Below are positions 17,858 through 47,173 of a stretch of DNA of 64,000 bases, one piece after another. The stretch spans positions 3,159 to 67,158 of the forward strand of contig CALZGZ010000120.1 of the NCBI GenBank assembly GCA_945787105.1, written 5' to 3'. The notes beneath the pieces were generated by a model. The model had not been told where the DNA came from, did not search any database, and worked only from the letters and a program-made list of their open reading frames with translations. Made by a program: the position numbers and the translations under genes. The first letter of the stretch is position 1, and each line of letters starts with the position of its first letter. Source of the stretch: an uncultured Gammaproteobacteria bacterium. GTDB lineage: Bacteria; Pseudomonadota; Gammaproteobacteria; Arenicellales; JAANXG01.

Positions 17858-17884
17858 TAAAGTTCTCCCCGAACCGGCCGCTAA
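17858..17884 (+). promoter_or_regulatory. sigma28 (FliA) promoter for flgM-flgN
   Basis: TAAAGTTC-N11-GCCGCTAA (consensus TAAAGTTT-N11-GCCGATAA). It ends 30 nt upstream of the flgM ATG. Confidence 0.7.
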
Positions 17885-21969: not shown

Positions 21970-22073
21970 CCGGACCTCAAACCTTTTTATCGTTAGCGGC
22001 CCCAGGATCCGGATCTTGAGCGCCTTACTACTCGGACTACTCCGATAGTCGAAGCGCTCGATTCGGCGACGGC

Positions 22074-25076: not shown

Positions 25077-26282
25077 TTGGTTCTGCCCGCACCATCGCCG
25101 GCTCATCCTTCGCCACGCCTAGTTGACACCGGTCGCCGGGGCGCCGAGGCGTTTCTAGTCTTTGGCGGGACCAATCTGAGGGCAATTATTGCATTTTGCC
25201 GCGAATTGGAACGGCTGGGGCGGAGTTTTTCGATTATTACCCGCGGCGTAGAAGACGCGTTGCAAAAGACATGCTTCAAGAGCCACATCCATGCAGTGCG
25301 GCGTAAAGACCAGTTGGACTGGACCGATATCTCCCGCGCCATCACCCAGGCTCAACACCAAAGCGGCAAGCATTCCTTTTGTATCTGCCCCTCCTCCGAG
25401 GCGCTCAACCGGTTTTTGCTGGACCATCGCACCGAACTCGCGAAACTCGGATGCACACTGCCGCTCGTGAATGCCGAGACCTATCATCGGATATCCGATA
25501 AGTACAGCTTCCAGTCGATCTGCCAATCCAAAGGACAGCCCGTGCCACGCATGTACTTATCCGTTAATGCTCTCGAATTCCCCTGCGTGGCAAAGCCGTA
25601 TCGGAATCTCGTTGATGGCCGGATTCTGTATCCGGTGATATTGCGCGGCGATACCGACCTTCAGGCGTTCCACCACCAGTGCGATGCAGGAGAGTATTTC
25701 TATCAGGCTTACGTTGCCGGGCCCAGCCACTATCTTTTGTTCTATGTCCGGCGGGACGGAAGCGATGTCCGGTTTTCGCAGGAGAATCTGTTGCAACAGG
25801 CCGGAGGTAAATCGATCGTCATGGCGCGCAGCGCGAATCTGCATCAAGCGCCCATCGCCGAAAGCTACAAGTCCATATTAATCGGACTCGAATTTCACGG
25901 CCTGATAATGATCGAACTGAAAGGAGGCGGCGGTCACTATACGATGATCGAGGCCAACCCGAGGTTGTGGGGACCGCTGCAATTGTCAATGGACGGCGGT
26001 AGCAATCTCGTGCGGGCTTTCATACAGGATCAGTTGGCTGTCCGCGCAATGAGTTCGGGGGCCACCGATATCCGCAGCGCGCGATATTTCTGGCTGGGCG
26101 GCGTACTGCAAAACCTGCTATCACAACATGCTCTGCAGAAACACCCTGATAATCGTCGGCTGCGCTTTTCGGACATTGCTTGTGGCGTGTGCTCCGATAT
26201 CTACCTGCGTCCGGGCACCGCGCGATTATTTCTTCACGAGATCATCCACACGTTCACGATGCGAAGACGGAGGGAAATATGA
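25077..26282 (+). CDS. ATP-grasp fold ligase-like protein
   Basis: 401 aa. N-terminal Rossmann-like FLVFGGTNLRAIIAFCREL; central PCVAKPY...YFYQAYVAG...HGLIMIELKGGGGHYTMIEANPRLWG resembles ATP-grasp. TTG start with a weak RBS. Confidence 0.65.
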   Translation: MVLPAPSPAHPSPRLVDTGRRGAEAFLVFGGTNLRAIIAFCRELERLGRSFSIITRGVEDALQKTCFKSHIHAVRRKDQLDWTDISRAITQAQHQSGKHSFCICPSSEALNRFLLDHRTELAKLGCTLPLVNAETYHRISDKYSFQSICQSKGQPVPRMYLSVNALEFPCVAKPYRNLVDGRILYPVILRGDTDLQAFHHQCDAGEYFYQAYVAGPSHYLLFYVRRDGSDVRFSQENLLQQAGGKSIVMARSANLHQAPIAESYKSILIGLEFHGLIMIELKGGGGHYTMIEANPRLWGPLQLSMDGGSNLVRAFIQDQLAVRAMSSGATDIRSARYFWLGGVLQNLLSQHALQKHPDNRRLRFSDIACGVCSDIYLRPGTARLFLHEIIHTFTMRRRREI

Positions 26283-27154
26283 GGGCGGCGACCGACCTGA
26301 TAACGGAGTTGCGTGCGCTGTACTTCGATGGATCGAAACACACCTCGTATCAGAACGTGCCCGCCTTCGTTGAGGACGCGTTAGGCTTTCAGGTTTCGAT
26401 TGATGAGTGCTGGCGCAGTGACAAACCCCGCTACCGGTATCTGTTGGAACATTGTCCCCCGCAACCTGGTGAGCACGTCATCGACATCGGGGCAAATACC
26501 GGCTATTTCGCACTGAGCCTTGCACAACGCTTTACAAAGTGCCGCTTCACTGCTTACGAGTTCCATCCACAACACGTGGGATTCATGAGGCTTGTGCGCA
26601 TCGCATTTCAGCTGCACAACCTCGAAATCGAACCGAAACCGGTCAAGGTGGCGGATTCACACCGTCTGCCGCCCTACGATCTGGTGCTGTTTATGAACGT
26701 ATTGCACCACCTGGGTTGCGACTTCGACATCGACGTCGGGCGGAGCAACGACGAGTTCCGGGAAATGGCGGTGGCGATGCTAGGCGGTTTGAGGCAAGCG
26801 GGAAACCGAATGCTATTTCAGATGGGCACGAATCGTGGGGGGGATAAGTCCAATCCGATTGTCGACGCCCGAGACGAACCGCGCAAACTCGCCTATCTTA
26901 CCGACCTGCTCCTGGCCGCCGGGTGGGACATTGACCACATCGCCTTTGCACAAAAGCTCCCAGACGGTGACATCCGATTTCGAAACCTTCCGCGGACCCT
27001 GATCAAAGAAATCTGCGACCGGGCTCGCTCGTCCTCGGCAATCACTGCGAAGACCTTGCACGCACGAGCACCGTGGCTCGACCTGGACTGCTTTCCCGGT
27101 GAGTTTTACCGGCGGCCACTGATCGCATGCCGGGCGGTCGGAGGACCATCGTGA
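26279..27154 (+). CDS. class I SAM-dependent methyltransferase
   Basis: I moved the start to ATG 26279, which forms an ATGA overlap with the upstream stop and has GGAGGG 6 nt upstream. SAM motif VIDIGANTGYFALSLAQ; FMNVLHHL block. Confidence 0.75.
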   Translation: MRAATDLITELRALYFDGSKHTSYQNVPAFVEDALGFQVSIDECWRSDKPRYRYLLEHCPPQPGEHVIDIGANTGYFALSLAQRFTKCRFTAYEFHPQHVGFMRLVRIAFQLHNLEIEPKPVKVADSHRLPPYDLVLFMNVLHHLGCDFDIDVGRSNDEFREMAVAMLGGLRQAGNRMLFQMGTNRGGDKSNPIVDARDEPRKLAYLTDLLLAAGWDIDHIAFAQKLPDGDIRFRNLPRTLIKEICDRARSSSAITAKTLHARAPWLDLDCFPGEFYRRPLIACRAVGGPS

Positions 27155-28377
27155 GCATCAAGCGGCTCACCTTGTTCGGCGGTGATCCGGAATTCAGCCG
27201 CACGCTCCATGTCGGTACGCCAAACATCGGCGACACCAAGCGATTTCTAACGCGGGTCGAAAACCTGCTGAACAGGCGCGTACTCACCAACCGCGGTCCA
27301 CTGGTCCGCGAACTGGAGAGTCGCATGACTGAGCTGCTGAGCGTCAAACACTGCGTAACCATGAGCAACGGTACCGCGGCATTGGAAATCGCCACACGGG
27401 CCCTCAATTTCAAGGGCAACGCAATCGTCCCCGCACTGACGTTTGTCGCCACCGCCCATGCGTTGGAATGGCAACGCGTGCGGCCGATATTCGCGGACAT
27501 CATGCCCACCACACACCATCTGGACCCCCGCTGGATCAGACGCTTGGCCACTTCACTGACCAGCGGTGTCATCCCGGTGAATCTGTGGGGGCGCACCGTG
27601 GACATCGACGCGGTCGTGGCAGAGGCTACTATGCGCGACCTGGCCGTCGTGTTTGACTCCTCTCACGCTTTCGGTTGCACCTACAAGGGAAAGCCAGTCG
27701 GTGGATTCGGCGATGCGGAGATTTTTAGCTTCCACGCCACCAAATTCGTCAACACCTTCGAGGGCGGCGCGGTCACAACTAACGACGACGCGTTGGCGGA
27801 ACGGATCAGGTTGATGCAGAACTTCGGTTTCGCGGATCGCGATGAAGTCATACACGTGGGCATCAATGGAAAAATGAATGAAGTCCAAGCCGCCATGGGT
27901 CTCACGTCGGTAGAGGCAATGAAAGGCTTTATCTCACACAATCACGAGAACTATTGTGCCTATCTCGAGGGCCTCAGATACCTGGACGGTATCAACCTCA
28001 TTGAATATGACGCAGCGGAACGAAACAATTACCAGTACATAGTGATTGAAGTCGATGACGTCGTGACCGGACTACACCGGGACCAACTCATGCAGGTGCT
28101 ACATACCGAGGGCGTGGACGCCAGGCGTTACTTCTACCCGGGGTGTCATCGTATGGAACCCTACCGCTCGCGGCCAAAACCCAATGGCCAGGATCTTAAG
28201 CTGACGGACGAGATGCTTGCTCGCGTTTTGACACTGCCCACCGGGACCGCGGTGACCACGGGTGATATACGTCGCGTCGTTGCGCTGATGCAACGCATAC
28301 ACGAACGGCGAAACGACATCTCCCGCAAACTCGCGAAAAACGACCGCACTACTAGATTGACGAACTCGAGAAGGTGA
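27151..28377 (+). CDS. DegT/DnrJ/EryC1/StrS-family PLP-dependent sugar aminotransferase
   Basis: I moved the start to GTG 27151, which forms a GTGA overlap and has GGAGG 7 nt upstream. SNGTAALEIA and FDSSHAFG...EIFSFHATKFVNTFEGGAV are present, the latter holding the PLP-lysine context. Confidence 0.9.
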   Translation: MSIKRLTLFGGDPEFSRTLHVGTPNIGDTKRFLTRVENLLNRRVLTNRGPLVRELESRMTELLSVKHCVTMSNGTAALEIATRALNFKGNAIVPALTFVATAHALEWQRVRPIFADIMPTTHHLDPRWIRRLATSLTSGVIPVNLWGRTVDIDAVVAEATMRDLAVVFDSSHAFGCTYKGKPVGGFGDAEIFSFHATKFVNTFEGGAVTTNDDALAERIRLMQNFGFADRDEVIHVGINGKMNEVQAAMGLTSVEAMKGFISHNHENYCAYLEGLRYLDGINLIEYDAAERNNYQYIVIEVDDVVTGLHRDQLMQVLHTEGVDARRYFYPGCHRMEPYRSRPKPNGQDLKLTDEMLARVLTLPTGTAVTTGDIRRVVALMQRIHERRNDISRKLAKNDRTTRLTNSRR

Positions 28378-31300
28378 ACGACATGGCAGGTCAAATACTC
28401 GTAACCGTGGTGATTTCGACCTACAACCACGAACATTTCATCGGCCGCTGCATTGAAAGTGTTCAACTGCAGAACGTTTCGCCAATGGAGATCATTATTC
28501 TGGATGACTACTCCTCGGACAACACCCCCGGCGTCATCGAAGATTTCCGATGTGACAAACGAATCACCTACGTAAGAAACCCGGAAAACATCGGACCACG
28601 CCTGAACAACACCCGCGCCCTCGAAGTAGGGAGCGGACGATATCATGTCTGGTTGCATGGGGACGACTACCTGCTCCCCGGCCACCTCGAGCGGATCATC
28701 GGTGGTCTCGAACAACGTCCCGAGTGTTCCCTGGGATACGCGCCGCCGGTGTTTGTCGATGCGGCCGGGGAGACCTTACAAACCCCGGACCATCCCGGCC
28801 GTTCCAAACAGGATTATGCCGGTGGCCGCAATGAACTGGCGTTACTGCTCATTCATGACAACTATATTGTCCCTTCGTCCGTGGTGTTCCGGCGGAGCGA
28901 GTTAAACCGGGTCGGCAACTTCCATCCATCCATACCTGGCGCCGACTGGGACCTGTACACGCGTGTCGCGATACAAAATCCCAATTTCTACTACACGAAC
29001 ACCCTCGGCGTCGGCTATCGTTTTCACCCGGGGCAAGTATCGGTGCAGTTCTACGCCAATACCGATCCGCTCAAGGCACATCTCCATGTGGTAGAACAGG
29101 CCATGTATTCCAAAGCCGCCGGCCGGTTGCAGGGTCGCGAACTGGAGATCCTGGACTATCTCAACCGGCGCATCCAATCCTTTGGCGCGGCGGCCTGGAC
29201 ACAAGACCAAGACATACGCCGCGTCCGGGGAATGCTTGCGCGGCACTCATCAGTGCGAACGCCGGCGGCTGTTGGCCGAACGCCAACGATCAGTATCGTT
29301 ATTCCCTGCTACCGGCAGGCGCAGTACCTGACCGACGCGTTGGACAGCGTACTGGCTCAGGGCTTTGAAGACTGGGAGTGCCTGGTTGTCGATGATGGGA
29401 GTCCGGACGACACGGCGCAGGTAGTGACCAGATTCATTAAAGACCACGGCGAATCCAGAATCCGCTTGATCACCAAATCTAACGGCGGGCTCGCCAGCGC
29501 CCGTAACGCCGGCGCCGCGGAATCCCGCGGCCGCTACATCCTGCCGCTGGATGCTGACGACAAACTGCATCCGGACTACCTTACAGAAACGGTAGCCGTT
29601 CTTGATCGCGACCCTGAGACCGATATCGTTTATGTGGACGAACAGAATTTTGGTTTGGCCGGCCACGTGCATGTCAAAACCCAGGTATCCCTGGAAGCGC
29701 TCAAACAGCACAACGTCCACGACTATTGCAGCCTGTACCGCCGCAAAGTCTGGGAGCAAATCGGCGGATATTCGCCGGCCATGTATCTGGGCGGCGAAGA
29801 CTGGCAATTCTGGCTCGCGGCGTCGGCTCACGGTTTCCGGTCGCACCATCTGCGCAAGCCGCTGTTTTTGTACCGAAACCGCGAGCACACCATGGTCAGC
29901 GAGACCCAGGCACATCTCGGTCTCGTACGTGCACAGCTTGTCCTGCATCATCCAGGGATAGTTGGATCCGGTGAGATTCGCGCTGCAGAAGACACTGTGA
30001 AACGGACCCCGGCCCCACTTCGGGAAAAACTCCGGCAGGCGCTGCTTAAGCATACGGACAATCCTTTGTTGTGCCGGTTCAGCCAGCTGGCCGATGCGGG
30101 CGCACGAGACGCCCCGCTGGAACTGCCGTCACTCATTGATCCGCCGCTGGTTTCGGTCATCGTGACGACCATGGACCGTCCGGAGTTTTTAAAGGACGCG
30201 GTAGACTCGTTGGTGAGGCAAACCTACGAGAATTGGGAGGCGATCATCGTCAACGACGGTGGGGATGATATTGGCGATTGGATTACCACCGCCGATCCAA
30301 CCGGCCGGATTCATTACATTCGACATCCGCAAAATTGTGGGCTGTCGGCGGCACGGAACACCGGCATTTCGCTGTCCTCGGGAGAGATTCTGTGCTACCT
30401 GGACGACGATGACCGTTTGTTTCCGGACCACCTTGAAACCATTGTCGACGCCATGCAGACGAACAATACCAGTCTGGTCTATACCGAGGCCGAGTACGTG
30501 CGGGAACTCATCGAAGACGGCCAGCGCAGAGACCTGTCGCGCACGTCGCCGTATTCGCATATCGATTATTCCTTGGAACGGTTGCATATCGGTAACTTCA
30601 TCCCGGTAAACACCTGGGCCCACCGGCGGGAGCTGATCGCTTACGCCGGGGACTTCGACGTGACGCTCCATGCCCTCGAGGACTGGGACCTGTTGCTGCG
30701 GCTCGCGCGCATTACCACACCTGAGCACATCCCGAGGATCACGGCAGAGGTGCGGCTCCGTCCGGGAACGGTGAACGATAACATGAGCCAAAGAGCGCGC
30801 GGCGACTTACCCGCCCTGCATCGCAAGATCTATGCCCGCTACGCAATGCCGGGAAACCACAATGTGGACCGGCAACGAGAACGAATGCTAAAGCAACTCG
30901 AGACGGATCCGGCACCAACCAAACCCGCTGCAGCCACGCAACACCGCTATGACCAATGGCGGCAACGCCACACGCTAACTGAGAGCCAGGCACAGTACAT
31001 GGCGGAGCGAATGATGCTGACGTGGCAGGTACGGCCAAGCATTCAACTTATCGTCACCCACCAGGCGGGACAGGAGGACGCACTGGCCGACACCCTCGAC
31101 AGCCTGGGCCAGCAGTTGTACAAAGGGTGGGGCCTCAGCGTTGTGTCTCCGTGTCCCTGCCCCGACGACAGCTTCAATCGATTACCCAACCTGGAGTGGG
31201 TGGAGGCGCAAGGCGACCGCATCGCCGGTATAAACGGTGTCGTCGGCGATTCTCAGGCTGACTGGATCGTTCAACTCGACGCAGGCACGCGTTTTTCCCC

Positions 31301-33710
31301 GGACGCACTGTTTCGATGGGTCGATTACATCAATCTGCATCCGCATTGGCAGTTGTTCTACTGTGATGAGGACCGCGTTTCGGCCGATGGGATACACCAT
31401 GACCCGCTGTTCAAACCGGACTTTAACTTGGATCTATTGCGATCGACATCCTATATGGGAGATGTGGTACCAGTGCGACGCGAGTTGCTGGCCCGGCTCG
31501 ACGGCTACGGCAGGAGAACGGGTGCTGGTGTCTACGACATGGCGCTGCGCGTGCTCGATGCCGAGGGCGAGTCGATCATCGGTCACATTCCGGAGGTGTT
31601 GATTCACTGCAGAGACCGCCCGGACCCGCAACGCGACGAACAGACCGTCGCCGAGAATCGGCGTCTCACCGTTGAAGACCATTTGCAGCGCAACCACATC
31701 CGGGCAACCGTTGGCCACAATCTGGTCCCCGGTACGTTCTTCGTCGACTATGCCTTAAGCGAGTCGCCGATGGTGTCGATCATCATCCCCTACGGGGACC
31801 AAATCGACCCATCGCGGTTGTGTCTATCGAGCGTACTCGAAAAGACCGACTATCCCCACTACGAGGTCATCGTGGTCGACGATCGTGGTTCGGATTCGGT
31901 CGCCACAAGCGAAATTGGAATGATCAACCAAAGCGCGCGAAACGTACGCGTGGTGCGGAATCCCGAGCCGGGAGGGATCCCGGCGATGCTCAATTTTGCC
32001 GCGCGCGAGGCGCAGGGAGTGTTCCTATTGCTGTTGGATCCCGGAACCCAAGCCATACATGCCGAATGGTTGGCTCGCATGGTGGCGGTCGCACTACGGC
32101 CCGAAGTCGGCGCGGTGGGCGCCAGACTGGTCGATCTCAATGGCCGTATCAAACAGGCGGGACTCGTACTCGGCATGCAGGACGGCGTGGGCCGCCCGTT
32201 CGCCGGAGCCGACATGCAGGCCGCCGGATACCTGGGACGCCACCAGGTGACGCAGAATTACTCCGCGCTTGAAGCGGGGTGCATGCTTGTCAAGCGTGAT
32301 CAGTTCTTACAGCTCGGCGGCTTGAACGCGCAAGAATTCAAGCAATCGTATTTTGACGCCGATTTCTGCCTACGATTGCAGGACGTGGGATGCAAGTTGG
32401 TGTGGACGCCGTTTGCAACCTTGCTGCACCACGGGACCACGGCGGTGCAGGGACAACCGAGCCCTGCGCACAGCAATACCCTTGCTGCGGAACTCACCGC
32501 CTTCCAGCAGCGTTGGCTAACCAGGCTCGCCAGCGATCCGGCGCACAACCCCAATCTGTCACTGGTGGAACAGACTATGCAAATCGAGGTCGAGCTCGCC
32601 GTTCCGTGGCTCGACAGACATCATCCCCGCCCACGGATCTGGGCCTTCCCGCTCAACGACCAGGGTGTCGGACAGTACCGGGTGCGTCAACCGCTTGACG
32701 CTTTGGATCGTGCGGCGCTCGCCGAGCATGCGTTGTTGCCACCCCACGAAAGGGTCGAAAGGGCACGCGTGCCAACGGTGTGCGAACTCGCCCGGGCCGA
32801 TGCCGATACGTTACTGATTCAACACGGATTCAGTGATCTGTTTCTGCGCTGGCTGCCAAAATATCGTGCACTGGATATCGCGTTTCTGGTATTCGGGTTG
32901 GACGATAACCTGCTCGAGATCCCCGAAACAAACGACCGGCGCGATAAACTACCGGCGGATCTCGAGCGGCGCATTCGGGAGGCCTTGTCCCATTGTCACC
33001 GGCTCATCGTGCCGACAGAACCTCTGGTAGAGGTTTACCGGAGATTCATCGACGACGTTCGCGTCGTTCCCAACCAACTTGAACAATGGCGGTGGCAACA
33101 CCTGCGGCCAGACCGTCGGCCAATGAAGGGCAGCGGCGGAAAGCCGCGCGTGGGCTGGGTCGGCGCCCAGCAGCACCGCGGTGATCTGGCTTTGCTGGCG
33201 CCGGTAATGAAGGCCCTGCACGAGGACGTCGATTGGGTCATGATGGGGATGTGTCCCGCGGCGCTTCGGCGCTACGTGCGCGAATTTCACCAACCTGTGC
33301 CCTATAGCCGTTATCCGGAAAAGCTGTCCTCGTTGAACCTGGATCTGGCCGTGGCGCCCCTGGAAATCAATGTGTTCAACGAATGCAAAAGCGATCTGCG
33401 CATCCTCGAGTACGGGGCGCTCGGCTGGCCGGTCGTTGCCACGGACATACATCCGTACCGTGGTAAACCGGTCACCCGCCTGTCGAATAGCGCAACCTTG
33501 TGGATCGACACGATCCGCGAGCGGATCAATGATCTAGAGGCGCTGGCCGCCGAGGGCAGAGCGCTGCGCGAGTGGGTTCACCAACATCGCTTCCTGGAAC
33601 ATCAGCTCATGCCGTGGTTCGAGGCAATGTTATCTGATGCGGTGCTCGGGCGCTTTCCGATGACTTATGGGAACGAGCAGAATGGTATTCCTTCCGCCGT
33701 GGCAAGATGA
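28374..33710 (+). CDS. giant multi-module glycosyltransferase (five GT2/GT-A-type modules + one GT-B-like C-terminal module)
   Basis: 1778 aa. The GTG start overlaps the aminotransferase stop (GTGA). Repeated GT2 signatures: VVISTYN..ILDDYSSDNT..HGDD; SIVIPCY..VVDDGSPDDT..LDADD; SVIVTTM..IVNDGGDD..LDDDD; LDAG..YCDED..FKPDFNLDLL; SIIIPYG..VVDDRGSD. The C-terminal CKSDLRILEYGALGWPVVATD is GT1/GT4-like. Confidence 0.9.
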   Translation: MNDMAGQILVTVVISTYNHEHFIGRCIESVQLQNVSPMEIIILDDYSSDNTPGVIEDFRCDKRITYVRNPENIGPRLNNTRALEVGSGRYHVWLHGDDYLLPGHLERIIGGLEQRPECSLGYAPPVFVDAAGETLQTPDHPGRSKQDYAGGRNELALLLIHDNYIVPSSVVFRRSELNRVGNFHPSIPGADWDLYTRVAIQNPNFYYTNTLGVGYRFHPGQVSVQFYANTDPLKAHLHVVEQAMYSKAAGRLQGRELEILDYLNRRIQSFGAAAWTQDQDIRRVRGMLARHSSVRTPAAVGRTPTISIVIPCYRQAQYLTDALDSVLAQGFEDWECLVVDDGSPDDTAQVVTRFIKDHGESRIRLITKSNGGLASARNAGAAESRGRYILPLDADDKLHPDYLTETVAVLDRDPETDIVYVDEQNFGLAGHVHVKTQVSLEALKQHNVHDYCSLYRRKVWEQIGGYSPAMYLGGEDWQFWLAASAHGFRSHHLRKPLFLYRNREHTMVSETQAHLGLVRAQLVLHHPGIVGSGEIRAAEDTVKRTPAPLREKLRQALLKHTDNPLLCRFSQLADAGARDAPLELPSLIDPPLVSVIVTTMDRPEFLKDAVDSLVRQTYENWEAIIVNDGGDDIGDWITTADPTGRIHYIRHPQNCGLSAARNTGISLSSGEILCYLDDDDRLFPDHLETIVDAMQTNNTSLVYTEAEYVRELIEDGQRRDLSRTSPYSHIDYSLERLHIGNFIPVNTWAHRRELIAYAGDFDVTLHALEDWDLLLRLARITTPEHIPRITAEVRLRPGTVNDNMSQRARGDLPALHRKIYARYAMPGNHNVDRQRERMLKQLETDPAPTKPAAATQHRYDQWRQRHTLTESQAQYMAERMMLTWQVRPSIQLIVTHQAGQEDALADTLDSLGQQLYKGWGLSVVSPCPCPDDSFNRLPNLEWVEAQGDRIAGINGVVGDSQADWIVQLDAGTRFSPDALFRWVDYINLHPHWQLFYCDEDRVSADGIHHDPLFKPDFNLDLLRSTSYMGDVVPVRRELLARLDGYGRRTGAGVYDMALRVLDAEGESIIGHIPEVLIHCRDRPDPQRDEQTVAENRRLTVEDHLQRNHIRATVGHNLVPGTFFVDYALSESPMVSIIIPYGDQIDPSRLCLSSVLEKTDYPHYEVIVVDDRGSDSVATSEIGMINQSARNVRVVRNPEPGGIPAMLNFAAREAQGVFLLLLDPGTQAIHAEWLARMVAVALRPEVGAVGARLVDLNGRIKQAGLVLGMQDGVGRPFAGADMQAAGYLGRHQVTQNYSALEAGCMLVKRDQFLQLGGLNAQEFKQSYFDADFCLRLQDVGCKLVWTPFATLLHHGTTAVQGQPSPAHSNTLAAELTAFQQRWLTRLASDPAHNPNLSLVEQTMQIEVELAVPWLDRHHPRPRIWAFPLNDQGVGQYRVRQPLDALDRAALAEHALLPPHERVERARVPTVCELARADADTLLIQHGFSDLFLRWLPKYRALDIAFLVFGLDDNLLEIPETNDRRDKLPADLERRIREALSHCHRLIVPTEPLVEVYRRFIDDVRVVPNQLEQWRWQHLRPDRRPMKGSGGKPRVGWVGAQQHRGDLALLAPVMKALHEDVDWVMMGMCPAALRRYVREFHQPVPYSRYPEKLSSLNLDLAVAPLEINVFNECKSDLRILEYGALGWPVVATDIHPYRGKPVTRLSNSATLWIDTIRERINDLEALAAEGRALREWVHQHRFLEHQLMPWFEAMLSDAVLGRFPMTYGNEQNGIPSAVAR

Positions 33711-33846: not shown

Positions 33847-36324
33847 TTATCTCCCGCGCGCCGCGGCTGTTTGCGGGGACAGTGTGACAAGCTTTTTCTG
33901 ATAGTCAGACCTTGAACGGCTGGTGTTTTTCTCGTAGCTGAACCGTCCGACCATTTGTTGGAGATTGACGGCCGTCTTGGACAGTTCGACGGCCGCCTGC
34001 TGCGCCTGTGTCGCGCCGCTCAGGGTATCTTGTGCAACCTGGCTCACGCTGGTGATGCTGTGGGCGATCTCGGCACTGCCGGTCGCGGCCCCGGCCAATA
34101 CACGCATGATTTCATCGGTTGTTGTCGCCTGCTGCTCCACACCGCTGGCGATACCTTCCTGTATTTCATGGATCTTGCCAATAATTTCGCCGATCTTCTC
34201 TATTGCCTCGACCGCGCTTCGGGTATCCACCTGAATGGCCTCGATCTTTCTGCTGATGTCATCCGTGGCCTGACCGGTTTCCTTGGCCAGGTCCTTCACT
34301 TCGTTGGCCACCACCGCGAACCCCTTTCCGGCCTCGCCGGCGCGGGCGGCCTCGATGGTTGCGTTCAACGCCAGCAGATTGGTCTGTTCGGCGATGGTCG
34401 TGATCATCTTGATGACGTTGCCGATCTCGTTGCTGCTCTCACCCAGCTTCGCCACCGTGGCGTTGGCGGTTCTTGCGATCTCGACCCCCTGGGTCGCGAC
34501 ACTGGAAGCTGCGTCGGCGCTATCAGCCACAACTCGGATGCTGGCATTCATCTGTTCCGCCGCCGCGGCCACGGTCTCCACGCTGTTGCTCACCTCTCCG
34601 GCAGCCGCCGACACCGCACTCGCCCGATCGGAGGTCGTCTCCGCGTTGTCACTGATCTGCTGTCCGATCGAGGTCAACTGTTCCGATGATGCGGTAAGTC
34701 CCTGGGCATTCAGCGCGATGGTGCCGATGTTGTGTCGTAGTTCCGTTAGAAATCCTTGCAAACCATCTCCCATCTGACCAATTGCGTCCGAACCCAGCAC
34801 CTTTACTTCTTTGGTCAGATCGCCCTTTGCCGCGGCACTGACCACGGAAAGCAATTGATCCACCTTGCTGCGCAGCTTGGCGTTGTTCTGCTCCAGAGCC
34901 ATGGATTGCGTTACCGCCCGCAGACTTACGCCTATATGCACCGCAGCGTGTTTGAGAAAACGTTTTTCCGCCTCACTCGGATCAGCCGCAAACATAAGCA
35001 TCAGTGTGACGGTTTGATTGTCGTCCGGATTCAGCACACTGGTATAGATCTTCTGACCCGAGGCGTGTCCCCGAATTTCCGTCCACTGACCATCACCGTG
35101 GCTCGATACCTCATTCGAAGTACCAACTTCGCCGACCAGCGCGTCGTCACCGTCGCCGTACACCGCCAGTACTGAAGTTTCGTCACCCACCCGGCGTCGC
35201 ACCCAGGCCCCGACCAGGTCGAGCCGTTCATACAAGAACCCGACAGCCTGGTCGAGGAGTTCCTCAATCTGCGCTTCTTCCTGTATCGCTTCCGCTATGA
35301 GACGCAGACTCTCGTTCGTCCAGTTTTCCTGCTCAGCCTGCGCCTGCGCCTTCCGGGCTATCTCGGTCTGCGCCTTTCCCTCACTAACGAGCTTGGCCAG
35401 GTTTCTTCCCATCCGTCCCACCGCCTCCGCGACACCACCGATTTTATCCTTGGAGGTCACCTCGATATGTGCGTCAAGGTCCCCGTCGGCAATGCGTTTT
35501 GCGTATGCCACCACGCGACCCAGACGCCGGTCCAGTAACCGGTATAGCAACAGCATAGCGGCTACGACCACGAGGAGATTAACACCGAGACTCCAACCCG
35601 CACCGTGCTCGACATTACGGAGTATGGCGTGTTGCGCCGCCACGTTGTGGCGCGCTTTGGAAGTGTTTGCCGACGCGAGGTGGGTCCAGCGTTTACTTTC
35701 GGCCTCCAATTGCGTCGCGGCCTGCCTGATGGTCGACTGCAACTGTTGCTGCATATCCTCGGCGTCGTAAAGTAAATCGAACCGTTCATTGTGATCCTCA
35801 GTCGCCAGCAGCTCGTCGGTCATCATCACCATCACCCTGGTATATTCCTTGAGGTCCGCCAGCAACTTCTCTGACATTAGGCTATCGTCGACCAAATCAA
35901 GCGCCTGCAACGTCTGCTGGATCTTGCCTGAGGCAGTGGCCAAAGCCTCGGGGTCACGGTCGGTGTCGATCACCAACATCTCAAATTCAAAGCCATGGAA
36001 TTGCACTGCGTGCTTGAGGTGGTTCAATGACCGCATCATCGGCAGCAAAGCCTGACCCAGCTTACCTACGTTGCGATCGGTCTTCTCGATCAATTCGAGG
36101 TTTTCCCTGGCGTGTTTAGAGGCTTCATCGAGTTTGGTGGCAACATACAGACCACCCACCACGGCGATTAACACCATCACAAACAGGGCAGCACCGATTG
36201 ACCAGGTGACGGCGACTCCCCTTTTGGTTCCGTGAGCCGGCGCGCCGGCATTGATTGGGGCTTTTGCAGGCGCGGTCTCGATGACTTCCTTTGTTTCCGC
36301 TTCGGCTGTGTTTCGATCAGTCAC
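33847..36324 (-). CDS. methyl-accepting chemotaxis protein (periplasmic helical domain, HAMP, cytoplasmic GAF-like insert, MCP signalling domain)
   Basis: 825 aa. Two TM segments flank a helical region of ~200 aa. HAMP (IADGDLDAHIEVTSKDKIGGVAEAVGRM). Hairpin-tip block [35 protein letters not shown]. Confidence 0.9.
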   Translation of the reverse strand: MTDRNTAEAETKEVIETAPAKAPINAGAPAHGTKRGVAVTWSIGAALFVMVLIAVVGGLYVATKLDEASKHARENLELIEKTDRNVGKLGQALLPMMRSLNHLKHAVQFHGFEFEMLVIDTDRDPEALATASGKIQQTLQALDLVDDSLMSEKLLADLKEYTRVMVMMTDELLATEDHNERFDLLYDAEDMQQQLQSTIRQAATQLEAESKRWTHLASANTSKARHNVAAQHAILRNVEHGAGWSLGVNLLVVVAAMLLLYRLLDRRLGRVVAYAKRIADGDLDAHIEVTSKDKIGGVAEAVGRMGRNLAKLVSEGKAQTEIARKAQAQAEQENWTNESLRLIAEAIQEEAQIEELLDQAVGFLYERLDLVGAWVRRRVGDETSVLAVYGDGDDALVGEVGTSNEVSSHGDGQWTEIRGHASGQKIYTSVLNPDDNQTVTLMLMFAADPSEAEKRFLKHAAVHIGVSLRAVTQSMALEQNNAKLRSKVDQLLSVVSAAAKGDLTKEVKVLGSDAIGQMGDGLQGFLTELRHNIGTIALNAQGLTASSEQLTSIGQQISDNAETTSDRASAVSAAAGEVSNSVETVAAAAEQMNASIRVVADSADAASSVATQGVEIARTANATVAKLGESSNEIGNVIKMITTIAEQTNLLALNATIEAARAGEAGKGFAVVANEVKDLAKETGQATDDISRKIEAIQVDTRSAVEAIEKIGEIIGKIHEIQEGIASGVEQQATTTDEIMRVLAGAATGSAEIAHSITSVSQVAQDTLSGATQAQQAAVELSKTAVNLQQMVGRFSYEKNTSRSRSDYQKKLVTLSPQTAAARGR

Positions 36325-36338
36325 GGGGAGATCCGCTG

Positions 36339-37202
36339 TTAGAATTGGAATACCAGGTTGTCTGAGACCGTGTGGTCATCGTCGGCCGAGTGGTCGTAAA
36401 TGGCGATGCCGCCGACCAGCGTGCCACTGGTTGGAAATACGACGTCGTCCGGGTGACCGGTGTCGCGCTTGCGGCGGATCTCCAAACACCATTTGCCGTT
36501 TTGCCACTTCCCTTTGACCTTGACGTCGGCTACCGAACCCTGCGGGTCATTGGCAAGCAAATACTTGGGCATCACGTCTTTCTCGAACTTGGCGTAACGC
36601 TTGGTCGTGTACAACTTGTCCCCGGCGTCGCTGGGACGCGATATATAGACCTTTGCGCCGTTGGCACCGGGAAAATCCCGCGACTTCGTCAGCTTCTTGG
36701 TGCTGATGAACGTCTGTTTATCGTGAATCAGGCCCAGGGGATTGGAGCGCACAGACTTCCAATGCCACATGTCGGCCTTGTACTCCTTGCCCGACAGCCA
36801 GTCGGTCGAATACTCCCCGTCCATCACGAACTGCATTGCGAAACGGTCCTCGCGCTGGGGCCCCGCGACGTATTTGCCTGTTTCCTTGTCCCACACCCAC
36901 GGTTTGTGGACCTTGTCTTCGCTGGAGTCCTCCCACTCAACCAAGAAATAGACATAGTCGCGGTGTAAGCCGCCCTTTACATCGACGCTGTTCACCGCGG
37001 TGGTTACGCCGGACCTGCTCGGCTTAAGCGCGACGCGGGTGACCGGCACATCCGCCCACTCCTTGCCGTCTCCGTCCAGCGCCGGTTCGGACGTCAGCGC
37101 ATGCATGGTGACGGTTGTGGCCACCGCATCCGCCGCCGGCGCCAAAGTGGACGAAAATCCCAAAATCAAACAAATGGTAAAGCTGCTTCGCATCGTAGAC
37201 AT
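36339..37202 (-). CDS. secreted EB_dh/DOMON-like (ethylbenzene-dehydrogenase gamma-like, putative haem- or ligand-binding) protein
   Basis: 287 aa. Signal peptide MSTMRSSFTICLILGFSSTLAPAADA. The blocks LDGDGKEWADVP, EDRFAMQF and ADMWHWKSVRSNPLG resemble my memory of the EB_dh family. Ends 14 nt before the MCP start. Confidence 0.6.
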   Translation of the reverse strand: MSTMRSSFTICLILGFSSTLAPAADAVATTVTMHALTSEPALDGDGKEWADVPVTRVALKPSRSGVTTAVNSVDVKGGLHRDYVYFLVEWEDSSEDKVHKPWVWDKETGKYVAGPQREDRFAMQFVMDGEYSTDWLSGKEYKADMWHWKSVRSNPLGLIHDKQTFISTKKLTKSRDFPGANGAKVYISRPSDAGDKLYTTKRYAKFEKDVMPKYLLANDPQGSVADVKVKGKWQNGKWCLEIRRKRDTGHPDDVVFPTSGTLVGGIAIYDHSADDDHTVSDNLVFQF

Positions 37203-37292
37203 CGGTTGGGTACCTCCTTACCTGGAAATTGCATAATCGACCCAGCCCGGGCATCCCCAACGCCGGGTCGTACGACGTGATATTTAGTAGGG

Positions 37293-37319
37293 CTATCGGC
37301 ACCGACGTGCCTAACTTTA
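37293..37319 (-). promoter_or_regulatory. sigma28 (FliA) promoter for the EB_dh-like/MCP operon
   Basis: The minus strand reads TAAAGTTA-N11-GCCGATAG (7/8 + 7/8, exact spacing), ~90 nt upstream of ATG 37202. Confidence 0.65.
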
Positions 37320-37697
37320 GGACCTGTTCTGCGGTCATCCGACCCCCGCCCGAATACCATTGAACTGCACCCGGACCCCGTGATCCGGCTACAAGCCGGG
37401 AGCGTAGTCTAGGTGCCAACGTTTTGATCAAGTTTCCCGTCGGGCGACCGATATACTTCATTGAACCGATCGCGGCGCGGTCCATACCGTGACGACGCCA
37501 CGATTCCGCCCGCATATCGAACCGGGACAAGTACTGGAAACGCACACAAAGCATTCGACGTAAGTAGTGGGATAGCCGGTAATTCGGAAACCAAGGGGGC
37601 CGAATTGAGTTTAGACCCCAGCTTCCCGAACCCACGAGGACACTGAAATCCATGATAATGAAGCGATTACTGAGTGCGTCGTTGAAGGAGGTGCCCA

Positions 37698-39008
37698 ATG
37701 CGTCAGGCTAGAGCGCCCGCATCATCCAACGAGGCGCATGCGCCACATACCCTCGATCAGGCAGAATCCATTACCGGTGCGGATACCGCAACCATACGGC
37801 GATTCAAGCAGTTCGCGGTACTTTCGGATTCGGCGCTTACTGCAATCGCTGCGCAGTCGGTGGTCGAGAAGATACCGGCGGGACAGCAACTGATGGAAAT
37901 CGGAACCCGCGGAGACTCGGTCTTGTTTCTGTTAACGGGGCGCTTGGAGATGACCTCCGCGAACGGCGCGCCACACGAGATCGAGGGTAGTAGCGCTGAA
38001 GCCGATTACGCGATCTCGTATCTGCAACCACACCGTTATACGGTCACTACCAGCTCGCCCGCGGTGATCCTGCGCGTCAACCGCACCACCTTGGAAAAGT
38101 ATGTCAACGAACGGAATTCCTCCACCTACGACGTCGAGGAGATCGAAGCTGGTGAACAACTCCGCGACAGCCTGTTGTTTCATGAGTTGTACGAAGGTTG
38201 CCGCTCCGATCGCTTGAGGTTGCCGAGTCTGCCGGATATCGCCTTCAAGGTTCGAAAGGCATTCGAAAATAAGCGCTCGGATTTGTGGAGCATCGCGTTG
38301 ATCATCGACTCTGATCCGGCCATCGCGGCAAAGTTAATCCGGGTGGCGAACAGCGCCAACTATCGCGGAGAAAATCCGGCCGACACCACGACCGGGGCAG
38401 TCATCCGCCTGGGCGCGGCGACAACCAAAGAACTGGTCATGAGCTTTGCTATGCGTGAGCTCTTCAACACCCGCTCCGCAACGCTCAATCAGCGCATGCA
38501 CAGTCTATGGAAACACAGTATCGATATAGCGGCGACGTGTTTTGTGGTCGCCGGCAGAACCGCTGATTTCGAGCCGGAAACCGCGTTACTCGCCGGCTTG
38601 CTCGAGTATATCGGCGCCATAGCAATCATCAGCTATGCGGAGAAGTATCCGGAGATCACCGATAACTCAGCCGAGCTCGAGAGAGTAATCAACACGCTGC
38701 ATCCCCATGTCGGTGGGATGATTTTGCATTCCTGGGGATTGCCCGAAAACATTTCCATCGTGCCCGCCGCATCGGAAGACTGGTTCCGGTGCTCAACACA
38801 TACCCCTGATTATTGCGCTCTGGTCATGTTCGCGAAACTGCTCAACCGGCTGCGGCGGGACCAGCATGCGGACGCTCTCCCGCCGATACACGAGTTGCCA
38901 TGCCTGGCGGCCTTGGGTTTCGGCGACTTGACGGTCGAATCCACCTTAGCGATGGCCGCCACGATCAAGGATCAGATCGACAAAATGCGGCGGCTGTTGA
39001 ACACGTAA
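37698..39008 (+). CDS. cyclic-nucleotide-binding-like domain + HDOD domain protein
   Basis: 436 aa. GAAGGAGG Shine-Dalgarno. N-terminal CAP-effector-like IPAGQQLMEIGTRGDSVLFLLTGRLEM. C-terminal HDOD (LPSLPDIAFKVRKAF...DPAIAAKLIRVANSANY...LLEYIGAIAI). Confidence 0.8.
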   Translation: MRQARAPASSNEAHAPHTLDQAESITGADTATIRRFKQFAVLSDSALTAIAAQSVVEKIPAGQQLMEIGTRGDSVLFLLTGRLEMTSANGAPHEIEGSSAEADYAISYLQPHRYTVTTSSPAVILRVNRTTLEKYVNERNSSTYDVEEIEAGEQLRDSLLFHELYEGCRSDRLRLPSLPDIAFKVRKAFENKRSDLWSIALIIDSDPAIAAKLIRVANSANYRGENPADTTTGAVIRLGAATTKELVMSFAMRELFNTRSATLNQRMHSLWKHSIDIAATCFVVAGRTADFEPETALLAGLLEYIGAIAIISYAEKYPEITDNSAELERVINTLHPHVGGMILHSWGLPENISIVPAASEDWFRCSTHTPDYCALVMFAKLLNRLRRDQHADALPPIHELPCLAALGFGDLTVESTLAMAATIKDQIDKMRRLLNT

Positions 39009-39098: not shown

Positions 39099-39491
39099 CT
39101 ACAGGGCGAAACCCAGTTCTATCAGTTTTTCGCGCAGCTCGTCTTTTGAAAACGGTTTCGTTAAATAATCGGTCGCGCCCAAGCTGATCGCCTCCAGCAT
39201 TTCGTCCAGCTCATTGCGCGTGGAGATCATCAGAATACTCATTCTCTGGTAATTAGGCTTTGCACTCAGGGCGGTAAGCAAACTCAACCCGTTCATCACC
39301 GGCATATTCCAATCAACCATCGCCAGGTCGTAAGGACCGTGAGCGGCGCAACAATTGAGCGCTTCCTGTCCTTGGGTGGCTTCATCCACCTTGAACCCCA
39401 GATCCTCCAAAGTCCGGCGAACGAGCATACGCGTGGCGCTGCAGTCGTCCACGACGAGTGTACAGCGTTTGTAACTAGAATTATTGACCAT
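39099..39491 (-). CDS. single-domain CheY-like response regulator
   Basis: 130 aa. TLVVDDCSATRMLV...DLAMVDWNMPVMNG...MISTRNE...YLTKPF. GGAGA Shine-Dalgarno. Confidence 0.9.
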   Translation of the reverse strand: MVNNSSYKRCTLVVDDCSATRMLVRRTLEDLGFKVDEATQGQEALNCCAAHGPYDLAMVDWNMPVMNGLSLLTALSAKPNYQRMSILMISTRNELDEMLEAISLGATDYLTKPFSKDELREKLIELGFAL

Positions 39492-39650: not shown

Positions 39651-40022
39651 TCAGGATCTATTTTTCCGCATACGCTCCAACAGCATTGCATCGTACTTCT
39701 GCTCCTCTTCCGGAAACTGTGCGACGAATTCCTTGGCCTTAGAACCCAACGTTCGGTGATAAAGTTTATACACTTCACACGCGACACAGTTGCGCTCCTT
39801 TTGCGCCACACTGCCCTGGACCACGCCGCCGCACAGCGTACCCGCGATGGCCCAGCAGCTGTGGCCCAGGCCCTCGATCGCGGCAATACACTCGCCTAAC
39901 TCAGTCACTTTTGCGCCGCCGCTTTCACGCCCACATTGTTTGATATCCCAGCAATTCTTCAACAATTTCGTCATCGTAATTCTGCCTTTTGGTTTGCAAT
40001 ATGTTGATTCATCGGCGCGCAT
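39651..40022 (-). CDS. small Cys-rich 'two-CW'-type domain protein
   Basis: 123 aa, or 107 aa if it starts at ATG 39974. NCWDIKQCGRESGG...GECIAAIEGLGHSCWAIAGTLCGG...RNCVACEVY has 7 Cys and two C-W dipeptides. GAGGG Shine-Dalgarno 6 nt before ATG 40022. Confidence 0.6.
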   Translation of the reverse strand: MRADESTYCKPKGRITMTKLLKNCWDIKQCGRESGGAKVTELGECIAAIEGLGHSCWAIAGTLCGGVVQGSVAQKERNCVACEVYKLYHRTLGSKAKEFVAQFPEEEQKYDAMLLERMRKNRS

Positions 40023-40071: not shown

Positions 40072-40098
40072 TTATCGACATGAAGCGCGAAAACTTGA
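40072..40098 (-). promoter_or_regulatory. sigma28 (FliA) promoter for the two-CW gene (and possibly the CheY-like gene)
   Basis: The minus strand reads TCAAGTTT-N11-GTCGATAA (7/8 + 7/8, exact spacing), ~50 nt upstream of ATG 40022. Confidence 0.6.
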
Positions 40099-40213: not shown

Positions 40214-40240
40214 TAAAGGCTCGTTCGAAGCTGCCGATAT
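40214..40240 (+). promoter_or_regulatory. sigma28 (FliA) promoter for the MCP at 40311
   Basis: TAAAGGCT-N11-GCCGATAT (exact spacing, -10 element 7/8), ~70 nt upstream of the start. Confidence 0.6.
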
Positions 40241-43229: not shown

Positions 43230-44078
43230 CTACGTAAGCATCTTCGCAAGATCGATAATCGACTGCACTTCCTGGTGGGCGCTGTCGATCACCGCGTTCA
43301 GATCTCCGGCATCCATCTTAAGTTCGCCGACCGCCGTCGTGTCTAGCCGCACGTCGGCCGCTCCCGCGAGGGACTGCCGGGTCCATTCGGCGCATACTCT
43401 TGTTAGCATGCACGCAGGCCATTGCGGGCCCCGGTAGTCCAACGTAGCGAAATTACCAATATTGGTCTGGATCGTATCGGGCATCCCCCACTGCGCAGCG
43501 ATTAACACCCCTGCCTGCCGGTGGTCCAGGCCGATCATCTGTGTTTCGATGTCGTGCAATGGCCGTTCCGGTTCGCGCTTTGCGAGTGTAAACACTGCGT
43601 CCATCTCCTCAGGTGAGACGTGGGCCAGCGCGATCACCCCGATGTTATGGAGGAGTCCATTCAAATAGGCGTCCTCCGGATCCGGCGCCCCCTCGATCCC
43701 AATCACCCGCGCGAGCCTGCGCGCAAGATGGGCGGTAAGTAACGCGCTGCACCAGTACTGATGGGTATCGAAACCGGGACATTTGTCCGTCCGGAAGCTA
43801 GAGCTCGCCGCGAGCGCGACGACCAGACTTCGCACCAGGTCCAGGCCGAGCACGCGAATGATGGCATCCTTGACTGAATTGGCGCGCGAGGGCAGACCGT
43901 AAAAAGCGGAATTTGCCACCTTGATGATACGCGCCGCGATCGGGGGGCTCGACTCGATAACCTTGGCAAGCTCCTGGAAATCCACATTATCGTCGCTCAC
44001 TGCTTTCAGCATCGACTGCATCTCAGCAAGCGGCGGAATTTCCTTGAGCCTGCGAACCAGTGGCTCTACGTCGGACAT
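43230..44078 (-). CDS. HDOD-domain signalling protein (paralog of 21094-21969)
   Basis: 282 aa. IESSPPIAARIIKVANSAFYG...DAIIRVLGLDLVRSL...LLHNIGVIALAH. Collinear similarity to the HDOD protein at 21094-21969. Confidence 0.85.
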   Translation of the reverse strand: MSDVEPLVRRLKEIPPLAEMQSMLKAVSDDNVDFQELAKVIESSPPIAARIIKVANSAFYGLPSRANSVKDAIIRVLGLDLVRSLVVALAASSSFRTDKCPGFDTHQYWCSALLTAHLARRLARVIGIEGAPDPEDAYLNGLLHNIGVIALAHVSPEEMDAVFTLAKREPERPLHDIETQMIGLDHRQAGVLIAAQWGMPDTIQTNIGNFATLDYRGPQWPACMLTRVCAEWTRQSLAGAADVRLDTTAVGELKMDAGDLNAVIDSAHQEVQSIIDLAKMLT

Positions 44079-44169: not shown

Positions 44170-44196
44170 TAAATTTTCCAACTCTCGGGTCGATAA
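44170..44196 (+). promoter_or_regulatory. sigma28 (FliA) promoter for the cheA operon
   Basis: TAAATTTT-N11-GTCGATAA (7/8 + 7/8, exact spacing), ~150 nt upstream of the cheA ATG. Confidence 0.65.
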
Positions 44197-46675: not shown

Positions 46676-47173
46676 GTGAACGCATTGCGGCAAGTTTGCA
46701 CATTCATCGTCGATAGCCACCTGATCGGGTTGGACACGAAACATGTCCGCGAGGTGCTTCGGTTTCAAGAGCTGACCAACGTGCCTCTGTCGCCGCTTAC
46801 GGTCAGTGGGCTCATTAACCTCCGCGGTGAGATCGTAACCGCATTAGATCTGCGCATACGCCTGGAGCTACCCCCGCGGGCCAGCGATCAACCTCCCATC
46901 AACGTCGTAGTGCGGAACAACAGCGAGACGGTGAGTCTGCTCGTCGATGAAATCGGTGACGTGCTCGAAGTCACAGAGGATACCTTTGAACCAGCACCGG
47001 AGCACCTCGAAGGGGCAGCGCATGACCTAATCGTGGGAACCTATCAACTGGAGGATAAGCTTTTGCTCATGCTGAACTTGAAAAACACCATGGATCTCAG
47101 CGATTCGACGACTTCCACACGCAGTGTACACGCCAGTCGAGTCGCGGAAACAGACCTGAGGCAAACACAATGA
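46676..47173 (+). CDS. cheW: chemotaxis coupling protein CheW
   Basis: 165 aa. [22 protein letters not shown]...[15 protein letters not shown]. The GTG start follows the cheA stop immediately. Confidence 0.9.

Follow-up and report, generated by a model that had tools for sequence, protein, structure and literature searches.

Within a 64,000-nucleotide stretch of DNA from an uncultured gammaproteobacterium (GCA_945787105.1, contig CALZGZ010000120.1; hereafter 'the window', meaning that stretch at its full length), two adjacent genes on the minus strand encode a secreted 287-residue protein of the Pfam EB_dh family and an 825-residue methyl-accepting chemotaxis protein (MCP). We consider it probable that their products together form a two-part periplasmic chemoreceptor, in which the EB_dh-fold protein is the subunit that recognizes the signal and docks on the four-helix bundle of the receptor. 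As a part of this reading, the two genes likely constitute a single operon dependent on FliA (sigma-28). A two-part receptor had been proposed in an earlier note made from the letters of the sequence alone, and it is strongly supported by conservation of the gene pair, which holds in both search directions and across several output domains.

Conservation of the gene pair across output domains

In a scan of one genome per species we recovered 59 EB_dh loci, 47 of which form a close family (L001-L047, 39-76% identity). The next same-strand gene begins, in 43 of these 47, with a module homologous to the first ~300 residues of the window MCP (local hidden Markov model (HMM) scores of 119-305 bits on the 43 partner modules), consisting of a transmembrane helix, a periplasmic four-helix-bundle domain, a second transmembrane helix and a HAMP domain. 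If the fragment in L029 is counted, the module lies next door in 44 of the 47 loci, a conservation of synteny that the earlier note had suggested looking for. The gap between the EB_dh gene and a full-length partner is mostly -4 to +84 nt, with outliers of 184, 246 and 269 nt and with 4-nt overlaps in five loci. What follows the shared module varies: an MCP signalling domain in 7 loci and in the window, GGDEF-EAL in about 24, a histidine kinase or hybrid kinase in 9, and GAF only in one (L020). An MCP is therefore only one of several outputs, a point that the earlier note had missed, most relatives being GGDEF-EAL proteins or histidine kinases, and the EB_dh protein with its cognate bundle is a portable input module that feeds varied outputs. 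In L029 (6837-7463, Zooshikella ganghwensis DSM 15267), the partner is an open reading frame (ORF) of only 207-208 residues in which the periplasmic domain is retained; this suggests that the gene is truncated or the assembly faulty.

The same pairing is recovered from the side of the receptor. A reverse search with the periplasmic domain alone (residues 40-262) against 1.84 billion representative proteins gave 14 matches, six of which were looked up; five of the six receptors have a called EB_dh gene ending 9-97 nt upstream, and in the sixth the contig ends within the upstream gene. The outputs of these receptors are GGDEF-EAL, PAS-GGDEF-EAL and several kinase types. In a scan of metagenomes with a 9-sequence subset of the bundle alignment, all three loci carrying the bundle motif EFEL..LDP have an EB_dh gene directly upstream, one of them (L063) possibly being the same contig as L044. 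Pairwise identities of the EB_dh proteins and of the bundles are correlated (r=0.71, Mantel 0/2000), and in 30 cases out of 40 one and the same locus supplies the closest relative for the EB_dh protein and for the bundle alike. This co-variation is consistent with a functional unit and is not proof of one, because shared descent contributes to it.

The pair occurs in more than 50 loci, mostly from marine bacteria, going by the names they carry. Its carriers include sulfur oxidizers, magnetotactic bacteria, SAR324, Desulfobacterota and many Oceanospirillales, and among cultured organisms Amphritea sp. HPY, Marinobacterium jannaschii and Motiliproteus. A third gene was considered as a possible member of the module and rejected, as no third gene is conserved around the pair.

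Among the distant homologues L048-L058, no downstream gene matches the periplasmic-domain HMM. In one of these loci (L056, 4750-7577) the gene after an EB_dh homologue at 22% identity encodes a histidine kinase, which matches the full N-terminal HMM and not the periplasm-only HMM; the two may represent the pairing in a more distant form. Tandem EB_dh paralogues occur in two others, with two copies in L048 (790-3169) and three in L049 (76-5145), again with no match to the sensor module downstream.

Identity and fold of the EB_dh protein

The 287-residue protein belongs to EB_dh in Pfam, matching PF09459 along nearly the whole profile (4-229 of 236) with E=5.5e-22 and 79.4 bits against a gathering threshold of 33.3, and its N terminus is of the Sec type, first basic, then hydrophobic, and ending in APA/AD. 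The blocks that had been pointed out in it, ADMWHWKSVRSNPLG and EDRFAMQF, are present, and the EB_dh assignment is borne out both by the family profile and by the predicted fold: an AlphaFold2 model built with 33 homologues is all-beta, an EB_dh-type beta-sandwich of high confidence (predicted local distance difference test (pLDDT) 92.9, predicted TM-score 0.86). The best Foldseek matches of the model in the PDB are NxrC, the haem-b subunit of nitrite oxidoreductase (NXR) (7b04_C, E=8.5e-11), and the ethylbenzene dehydrogenase (EBDH) gamma subunit (2ivf_C, E=4.4e-10, TM-score 0.72), followed by carbohydrate-binding modules of family CBM9. The window protein aligns with the haem-b gamma subunits in their W-[HY]-W-K strand and in their C-terminal block. 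All 96 homologues found in a large protein collection carry PF09459; most are 280-300 residues long, and those with names are mostly from Gammaproteobacteria. Conservation reaches at least 95% at 46 positions, many of them Arg, Lys or Asp, and the invariant residues include R120, K149, R152, R189 and R244 in addition to Asp and Trp.

The protein is nonetheless not a molybdoenzyme gamma subunit. Its score against TIGR03477, the model for type II dimethyl sulfoxide reductase gamma subunits, is 21.5 bits against a cutoff of 169.85, and neither among the scanned window ORFs of at least 200 residues nor among the genes listed for six related loci did we see one for a molybdoenzyme alpha or beta subunit. 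Both results bear on an alternative to a receptor complex, in which the EB_dh protein would be an ordinary periplasmic electron carrier or enzyme subunit, a neighbour of the MCP by regulation or by chance. The known characterized members of the family are indeed electron-transfer subunits (EBDH, NXR and the EbdC-like protein of the perchlorate island), but here both the partner subunits and any third conserved gene are missing, and an MCP or a GGDEF-EAL enzyme cannot directly regulate the transcription of its neighbour. Adjacency in 44 of 47 loci to a single type of periplasmic domain, in places with a 4-nt overlap, and the lack of a match to this domain downstream of the distant homologues likewise speak against a carrier, and we regard it as very improbable.

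The receptor, its periplasmic bundle and its cytoplasmic insert

The 825-residue protein is an MCP, with HAMP and MCPsignal domains and flanking transmembrane helices (Table 1). In an AlphaFold2 model of residues 1-520 the first transmembrane helix is followed by a periplasmic four-helix bundle and by a second transmembrane helix that runs into HAMP; residues 41-280 have block-mean pLDDT of 83-93, with helices at 39-119, 126-143, 152-174 and 178-279. The helical periplasmic domain claimed in the earlier note is thus a predicted four-helix bundle. No Pfam family covers this part of the protein. Its closest Foldseek neighbours are all four-helix-bundle sensors, among them an E. coli chemoreceptor, Tsr, TorS and sensor-transmembrane-HAMP fragments of NarQ, with TM-scores of 0.78 to the kinase sensor 4k0d and 0.79 to LytS-N in the XylFII-LytS complex (5xsj_L). 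The periplasm-only family HMM scores 174 bits on the window MCP and matches none of the four other signalling proteins of the window that were tested. One of the other receptors, the second MCP, had seemed to share the sensor domain and was rejected, its match to the full N-terminal HMM vanishing with the periplasm-only HMM.

Conservation of the bundle, in an alignment of 40 sequences, peaks at residues 110-123 and 167-188, both acid-rich, which in the model would form the membrane-distal tip. Mean identity is 49% for the EB_dh protein and 19% for the bundle. This difference bears on a second alternative, that the EB_dh protein is a modulator of the receptor (an inhibitor, stabilizer or assembly factor, comparable to CpxP-CpxA or YfiR-YfiN) and does not recognize the stimulus, the true sensor being the four-helix bundle or the cytoplasmic insert. 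Gene-pair conservation is equally compatible with a modulator, and periplasmic accessory proteins of sensor kinases are well documented (CpxP, QseG). It is the EB_dh protein, however, that is far more conserved, with its 46 near-invariant positions, as would fit a part that needs a fixed pocket or cofactor, whereas the bundle is conserved only at its tip and lacks a recognizable ligand-binding family signature. Nor can the insert be the common sensor, since it is present only in the closest MCP relatives. A mere modulator therefore seems unlikely in this instance, and we retain the EB_dh protein as the signal-recognizing subunit.

The insert itself, ~170 residues between HAMP and the signalling domain, had been described as GAF-like. 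That an extra segment exists stands, and it is conserved in the three closest orthologues (L001, L002 and L009) and absent from the other MCP-type partners. Its identity as GAF is not supported: in four orthologues no Pfam family, GAF or other, matches it at E<=10, BLASTP against the GAF domain of L026 returns nothing, hhalign against the genuine GAF domains of L026 and L020 gives a probability of 0.9%, a profile search of PDB sequences gives no match, and the insert does not figure among the best 50 Foldseek fold matches listed for the MCP model. AlphaFold2 begins it with a long helix and ends it with another, placing three strands, a helix and one more strand in between, with pLDDT of only 40-58. 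The idea was a reasonable one, since in two related receptors, L020 and L026, the corresponding position is taken by a genuine GAF; the second, cytoplasmic input that had been attributed to a GAF domain is not supported, because the GAF identity is itself unsupported.

Putative promoter and operon structure

The near-consensus sigma-28 motif that had been noticed in front of the EB_dh gene is present, TAAAGTTA-N11-GCCGATAG at 37293-37319(-) matching 14 of 16 consensus positions. Its core, TAAAGTT-N12-GCCGATA, occurs once in the 64 kb and in none of 100 dinucleotide-preserving shuffles. We scored the consensus TAAAGTTT-N10-12-GCCGATAA in the 300 nt 5' of every EB_dh homologue, and motifs matching 13-14 of the 16 positions lie 76-116 nt before the EB_dh start in five loci (L001, L002, L009, L005 and L018), with scores reached by 0-1 of 200 shuffles. 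The -35 box varies among them (TAAAGTC- in L001, L002 and L009, TAAAGAT- in L018, TTTAGTT- in L005), and the -10 box in MCP-type loci is GCCGATA(G/C) or GCCGCTAT at the same distance; among orthologous MCP-type loci the two boxes are kept while their flanks diverge. All five motif-bearing loci are of the MCP type, and a score of at least 13 is found in 0 of 38 testable loci with other, unknown or no outputs, and so in no GGDEF-EAL or kinase locus. The motif is thus linked to MCP-type outputs (Fisher p=1.7e-5, or 8e-4 with three close relatives counted once).

Similar motifs precede other genes of the window. A relaxed form (0-2 mismatches to TAAAG-N14-GCCGATA) occurs at 15 sites where 3.1 are expected by chance, including sites before flgM, cheA and the second MCP gene (Table 1). 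Because of the motifs in orthologues, their restriction to the MCP type and these similar motifs before motility genes, the sigma-28 reading of the putative promoter is well supported.

The anatomy of the putative operon is shown here. The GTG start of the MCP lies 14 nt past the EB_dh stop codon in the ORF map, as had been claimed, and both ORFs agree with the gene calls on a public contig (GCA_945787705.1, CALZIS010000001.1). Consensus scans of the intervening 14 nt find neither a sigma-70-like promoter on the minus strand nor a terminator-like site.

Table 1. Features of the probable EB_dh/MCP operon and sigma-28-like motifs elsewhere in the window (window coordinates)
Feature	Position	Strand	Remarks
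Sigma-28 (FliA)-type -35 box TAAAGTTA	37312..37319	-	consensus match; conserved in orthologous loci
Sigma-28-type -10 box GCCGATAG	37293..37300	-	11-nt spacer; 91 nt before EB_dh ATG
Shine-Dalgarno AAGGAGGT	37212..37219	-	10 nt 5' of EB_dh ATG at 37202; read from sequence
Secreted EB_dh-fold protein gene	36339..37202	-	287 aa; signal peptide ~residues 1-24; PF09459, AlphaFold2, Foldseek
Intergenic gap EB_dh/MCP	36325..36338	-	14 nt; no promoter-like or terminator-like site
MCP gene	33847..36324	-	825 aa, GTG start; HAMP + MCPsignal domains
Periplasmic four-helix-bundle sensor domain (predicted)	35599..36135	-	MCP residues 64-242; AlphaFold2, family HMM; no Pfam family
Tip motif 1 HGFEFEMLVIDTDR	35956..35997	-	MCP residues 110-123; consensus F..EFEL..LDPDR; helix-1/helix-2 turn in model
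Tip motif 2 MMTDELLATEDHNERFDLLYDA	35761..35826	-	MCP residues 167-188; consensus DI..ELLET.S.N.R.QL..DS; helix-3/helix-4 turn in model
HAMP domain	35398..35529	-	MCP residues 266-309; PF00672 E=9.7e-13, 48.7 bits vs 25
Unclassified insert, then HAMP-like stretch	34825..35337	-	MCP residues ~330-500; conserved in orthologues
MCP signalling domain	34033..34527	-	MCP residues 600-764; PF00015 E=1.4e-32, 113 bits vs 34.6
Sigma-28-like motif	17858-17883	+	31 nt before flgM (17914)
Sigma-28-like motif	21994-22019	-	upstream of HDOD gene (21969)
Sigma-28-like motif	37428-37453	+	upstream of HDOD/cyclic-nucleotide-binding gene (37698)
Sigma-28-like motif	40073-40098	-	50 nt before two-CW-domain gene (40022)
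Sigma-28-like motif	40214-40239	+	72 nt before second MCP gene (40311)
Sigma-28-like motif	44170-44195	+	104 nt before cheA (44300)

The contents of the pocket

NXR-C binds haem b via Met155 and Lys305, "as in EBDH" (PMC8387239). We mapped these ligands onto the window protein by ungapped sequence offsets from local HMMER alignments, and not by three-dimensional superposition; of NxrC near Met155, residues 159-169 were recovered. In both NXR-C and EBDH, counting back 9 residues from the one just ahead of W-[HY]-W-K gives the Met ligand, and the Lys ligand lies 11 residues past the aromatic residue that ends the "AVW" strand, the EBDH ligands being Met108 and Lys201. By these offsets the Met position of the window protein would be Leu136 and the Lys position Ser280 (or residue 281). 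Across 127 family sequences, position 136 is L, F, R, A, I or P, Ser occupies position 280 in 98%, and D, E or Q is found at position 281. The canonical pair of axial ligands thus appears to be absent by offset mapping, and the EB_dh protein has no CxxCH motif. Four residues that are invariant in the family, His99, His147, His277 and Met211, could be alternative haem ligands.

The haem-b binding and redox chemistry put forward in the earlier note are accordingly not supported, the canonical Met/Lys positions seeming not to be conserved. Haem is not established for this protein, since the canonical ligands are missing by offset mapping, and the ligand could be other than haem because CBM9 modules are the next structural neighbours. 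If one occupant of the pocket is to be named, haem is the single most likely, at a likelihood that we put somewhat below even; its ligands would be non-canonical, and His99, His147 and His277 are the candidates.

A third alternative retains the co-sensor and changes what it carries: in place of a fixed haem, the pocket would reversibly bind a diffusible periplasmic ligand, such as free tetrapyrrole, a pterin-like or other planar metabolite, a sugar, or a metal on His99/His147/His277/Met211, and its occupancy would control docking, as in PruR-DcpA or in binding-protein-dependent receptors. The missing axial ligands and CxxCH motif, the CBM9 sugar-binding modules as next neighbours, and the many invariant Trp, Asp and Arg residues, often seen in ligand-binding beta-sandwiches, are all in keeping with such a ligand, and PruR, which binds free pterin and then engages its GGDEF-EAL partner, is a precedent (PMC11194511). 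The strongest likeness in sequence and fold, however, is to the haem-b subunits NxrC and EBDH-gamma and not to CBM9, the W-H-W-K strand of those subunits is retained, and three invariant His and one Met could still ligate haem. A diffusible ligand is an alternative to be taken seriously, though we think it rather less likely than not.

In a distant homologue (P0095, 28% identity), the loop that holds the Met ligand in canonical members has an insertion of 13 residues, which carries the haem-c motif CxxCH in the form CAVMCH.

Proposed mechanism

Returning to the two-part chemoreceptor, we envisage that the sigma-28-dependent operon would yield both proteins and that the EB_dh product, once exported to the periplasm, would recognize the signal with its rigid and highly conserved beta-sandwich. 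The protein may then dock at the acidic, membrane-distal tip of the bundle. A change of its state, from free to ligand-bound or between oxidized and reduced, would pass through the second transmembrane helix, HAMP and the ~170-residue insert to the MCP signalling domain, whose output would go to the CheA/CheW/CheB/CheR system encoded 8-15 kb away. Elsewhere the same EB_dh/bundle pair would feed GGDEF-EAL enzymes or histidine kinases. As to the stimulus, our best guess is that a redox state or a small molecule in the periplasm is sensed by the pocket which, in NxrC and EBDH-gamma, is occupied by haem b. We infer the docking, the direction of signalling and the stimulus alike, the docking site because the bundle is conserved at its acidic tip and Arg and Lys abound among the invariant residues of the EB_dh protein; LytS-N and TorS, which the MCP bundle resembles, have been solved in complex with periplasmic partner proteins.

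It is tempting to go one step further and to speculate that this is a periplasmic haem or tetrapyrrole sensor of the EB_dh fold, with non-canonical and possibly open coordination, that reports redox state or O2, NO, sulfide or free haem. We rate this as doubtful at present. Such a sensor would be descended from the haem subunit of a molybdoenzyme, would act through a dedicated bundle receptor with chemotaxis, cyclic di-GMP or phosphorelay outputs, and might serve in marine redox gradients; of this scenario, too, we are unsure enough to offer it only as speculation.

Several observations weigh against the two-part chemoreceptor, or against parts of it. In L011 the partner-like gene is 4.5 kb downstream (~11381) and not adjacent, and L025 has no partner gene (the last of the three unpaired close-family loci, L042, ends at a contig edge). 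Two MCP-type loci, L003 and L027, are without the sigma-28 motif, and no gene of the window was recognized as fliA. The co-evolution signal may owe something to shared descent. To these are to be added, from the preceding section, the apparent absence of the Met/Lys pair and the structural likeness to CBM9.

Genomic context

The window is a flagellar and chemotaxis locus. It contains the hook, rod, ring and hook-associated genes flgD-E-F-G-H-I-J-K-L (assigned by Pfam), as well as motAB, flgA, flgM and genes of the flagellin-glycosylation type, and it encodes three MCPs together with cheA, cheB and cheR. A run of genes within the locus (25077-33710(+)) includes those for a 1778-residue multi-GT2 glycosyltransferase protein, a DegT-type aminotransferase and a methyltransferase, and is likely to be an island for the glycosylation of flagellin. 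The FliK hook-length-control domain (Flg_hook) is found in two separate proteins (16050-16964(+) and 22621-23802(+)).

Three HDOD-domain proteins are encoded among the motility genes (21094-21969(-), 37698-39008(+) and 43230-44078(-)). The first lies directly upstream of a GGDEF-EAL gene (18736-21090). The second, a fusion of HDOD with a cyclic-nucleotide-binding domain, is oriented divergently to the EB_dh operon, as is also the case in L002 and L009. A Cys-rich protein of 123 residues (39651-40022(-)), with no Pfam match and a match to the NCBIfam two_CW_domain model NF045718 (E=1.2e-20), is encoded next to a single-domain CheY-like gene (39099-39491) and has a sigma-28-like motif in front. 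The third MCP (47170-49338(+)) has nearly no periplasmic domain, HAMP being reached already at residues 68-111, and ~280 residues without assignment separate HAMP from its signalling domain (390-545).

Relation to known systems

Only a minority of bacterial receptors have a known stimulus, and assigning one is particularly difficult for sensor domains of the four-helix-bundle type. The analysis defines a compact two-gene input module, a secreted EB_dh protein with its cognate bundle, and in the searchable literature we found no description of EB_dh/DOMON proteins paired with sensors, kinases, chemoreceptors or cyclic di-GMP enzymes. The pair looks like an undescribed two-part periplasmic sensor. 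Its closest relatives by fold are the haem-b gamma subunits (EBDH-gamma, 2IVF chain C; NXR-C, 7B04 chain C), with which the EB_dh protein has in common the beta-sandwich, PF09459 and periplasmic location. It differs from them in lacking alpha and beta partner genes, in the Met and Lys positions, which appear not to be conserved, and in having a signalling protein as its conserved neighbour.

In the arrangement of its parts, the pair is closer to receptors that sense via a periplasmic partner, such as Tar-MBP, TorS-TorT (3O1I) and LytS-XylFII (5XSJ) (reviewed in PMC8050422). There, a four-helix bundle takes its signal from a separate periplasmic protein, a logic like that proposed here by analogy for the EB_dh protein and the MCP, and partner-dependent sensing serves chemoreceptors, kinases and cyclic di-GMP enzymes in the known systems, as it would in the EB_dh pair. 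The partners of Tar, TorS and LytS, however, are solute-binding proteins of the periplasmic-binding-protein fold, often shared with a transporter, whereas the partner here is a beta-sandwich of the EB_dh/DOMON type, dedicated and encoded immediately upstream of a bundle of unclassified subtype.

PruR-DcpA of Agrobacterium tumefaciens is an especially close parallel. PruR is a secreted relative of molybdoenzyme cofactor domains with a truncated cofactor site, binds free pterin, and acts on the periplasmic domain of DcpA, a transmembrane GGDEF-EAL protein encoded in the same operon (PMC11194511). Here, too, a secreted protein derived from molybdoenzymes has a modified cofactor site, and GGDEF-EAL is also the commonest output of the EB_dh family; the folds are different, PruR having that of a sulfite-oxidase-like molybdenum-cofactor domain with pterin as its ligand and the window protein that of EB_dh.

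A final comparison is with H-NOX and NosP, stand-alone haem sensors encoded next to kinases, cyclic di-GMP enzymes or MCPs. In each case a small sensor gene stands beside signalling genes whose output class varies between species, but H-NOX and NosP are cytoplasmic, have other folds and demonstrably bind haem, whereas the EB_dh protein is periplasmic and its haem is only putative. If it does carry haem, we would have here a sensor of periplasmic redox state or gases built on a new fold, comparable to a periplasmic counterpart of H-NOX and NosP; if it does not, it would be a second molybdoenzyme cofactor module, after PruR, to have been turned into a co-sensor that binds a ligand. In both cases a role in signalling would be added to the EB_dh family, one that has been masked by annotation as "ethylbenzene dehydrogenase-related" or "hypothetical".

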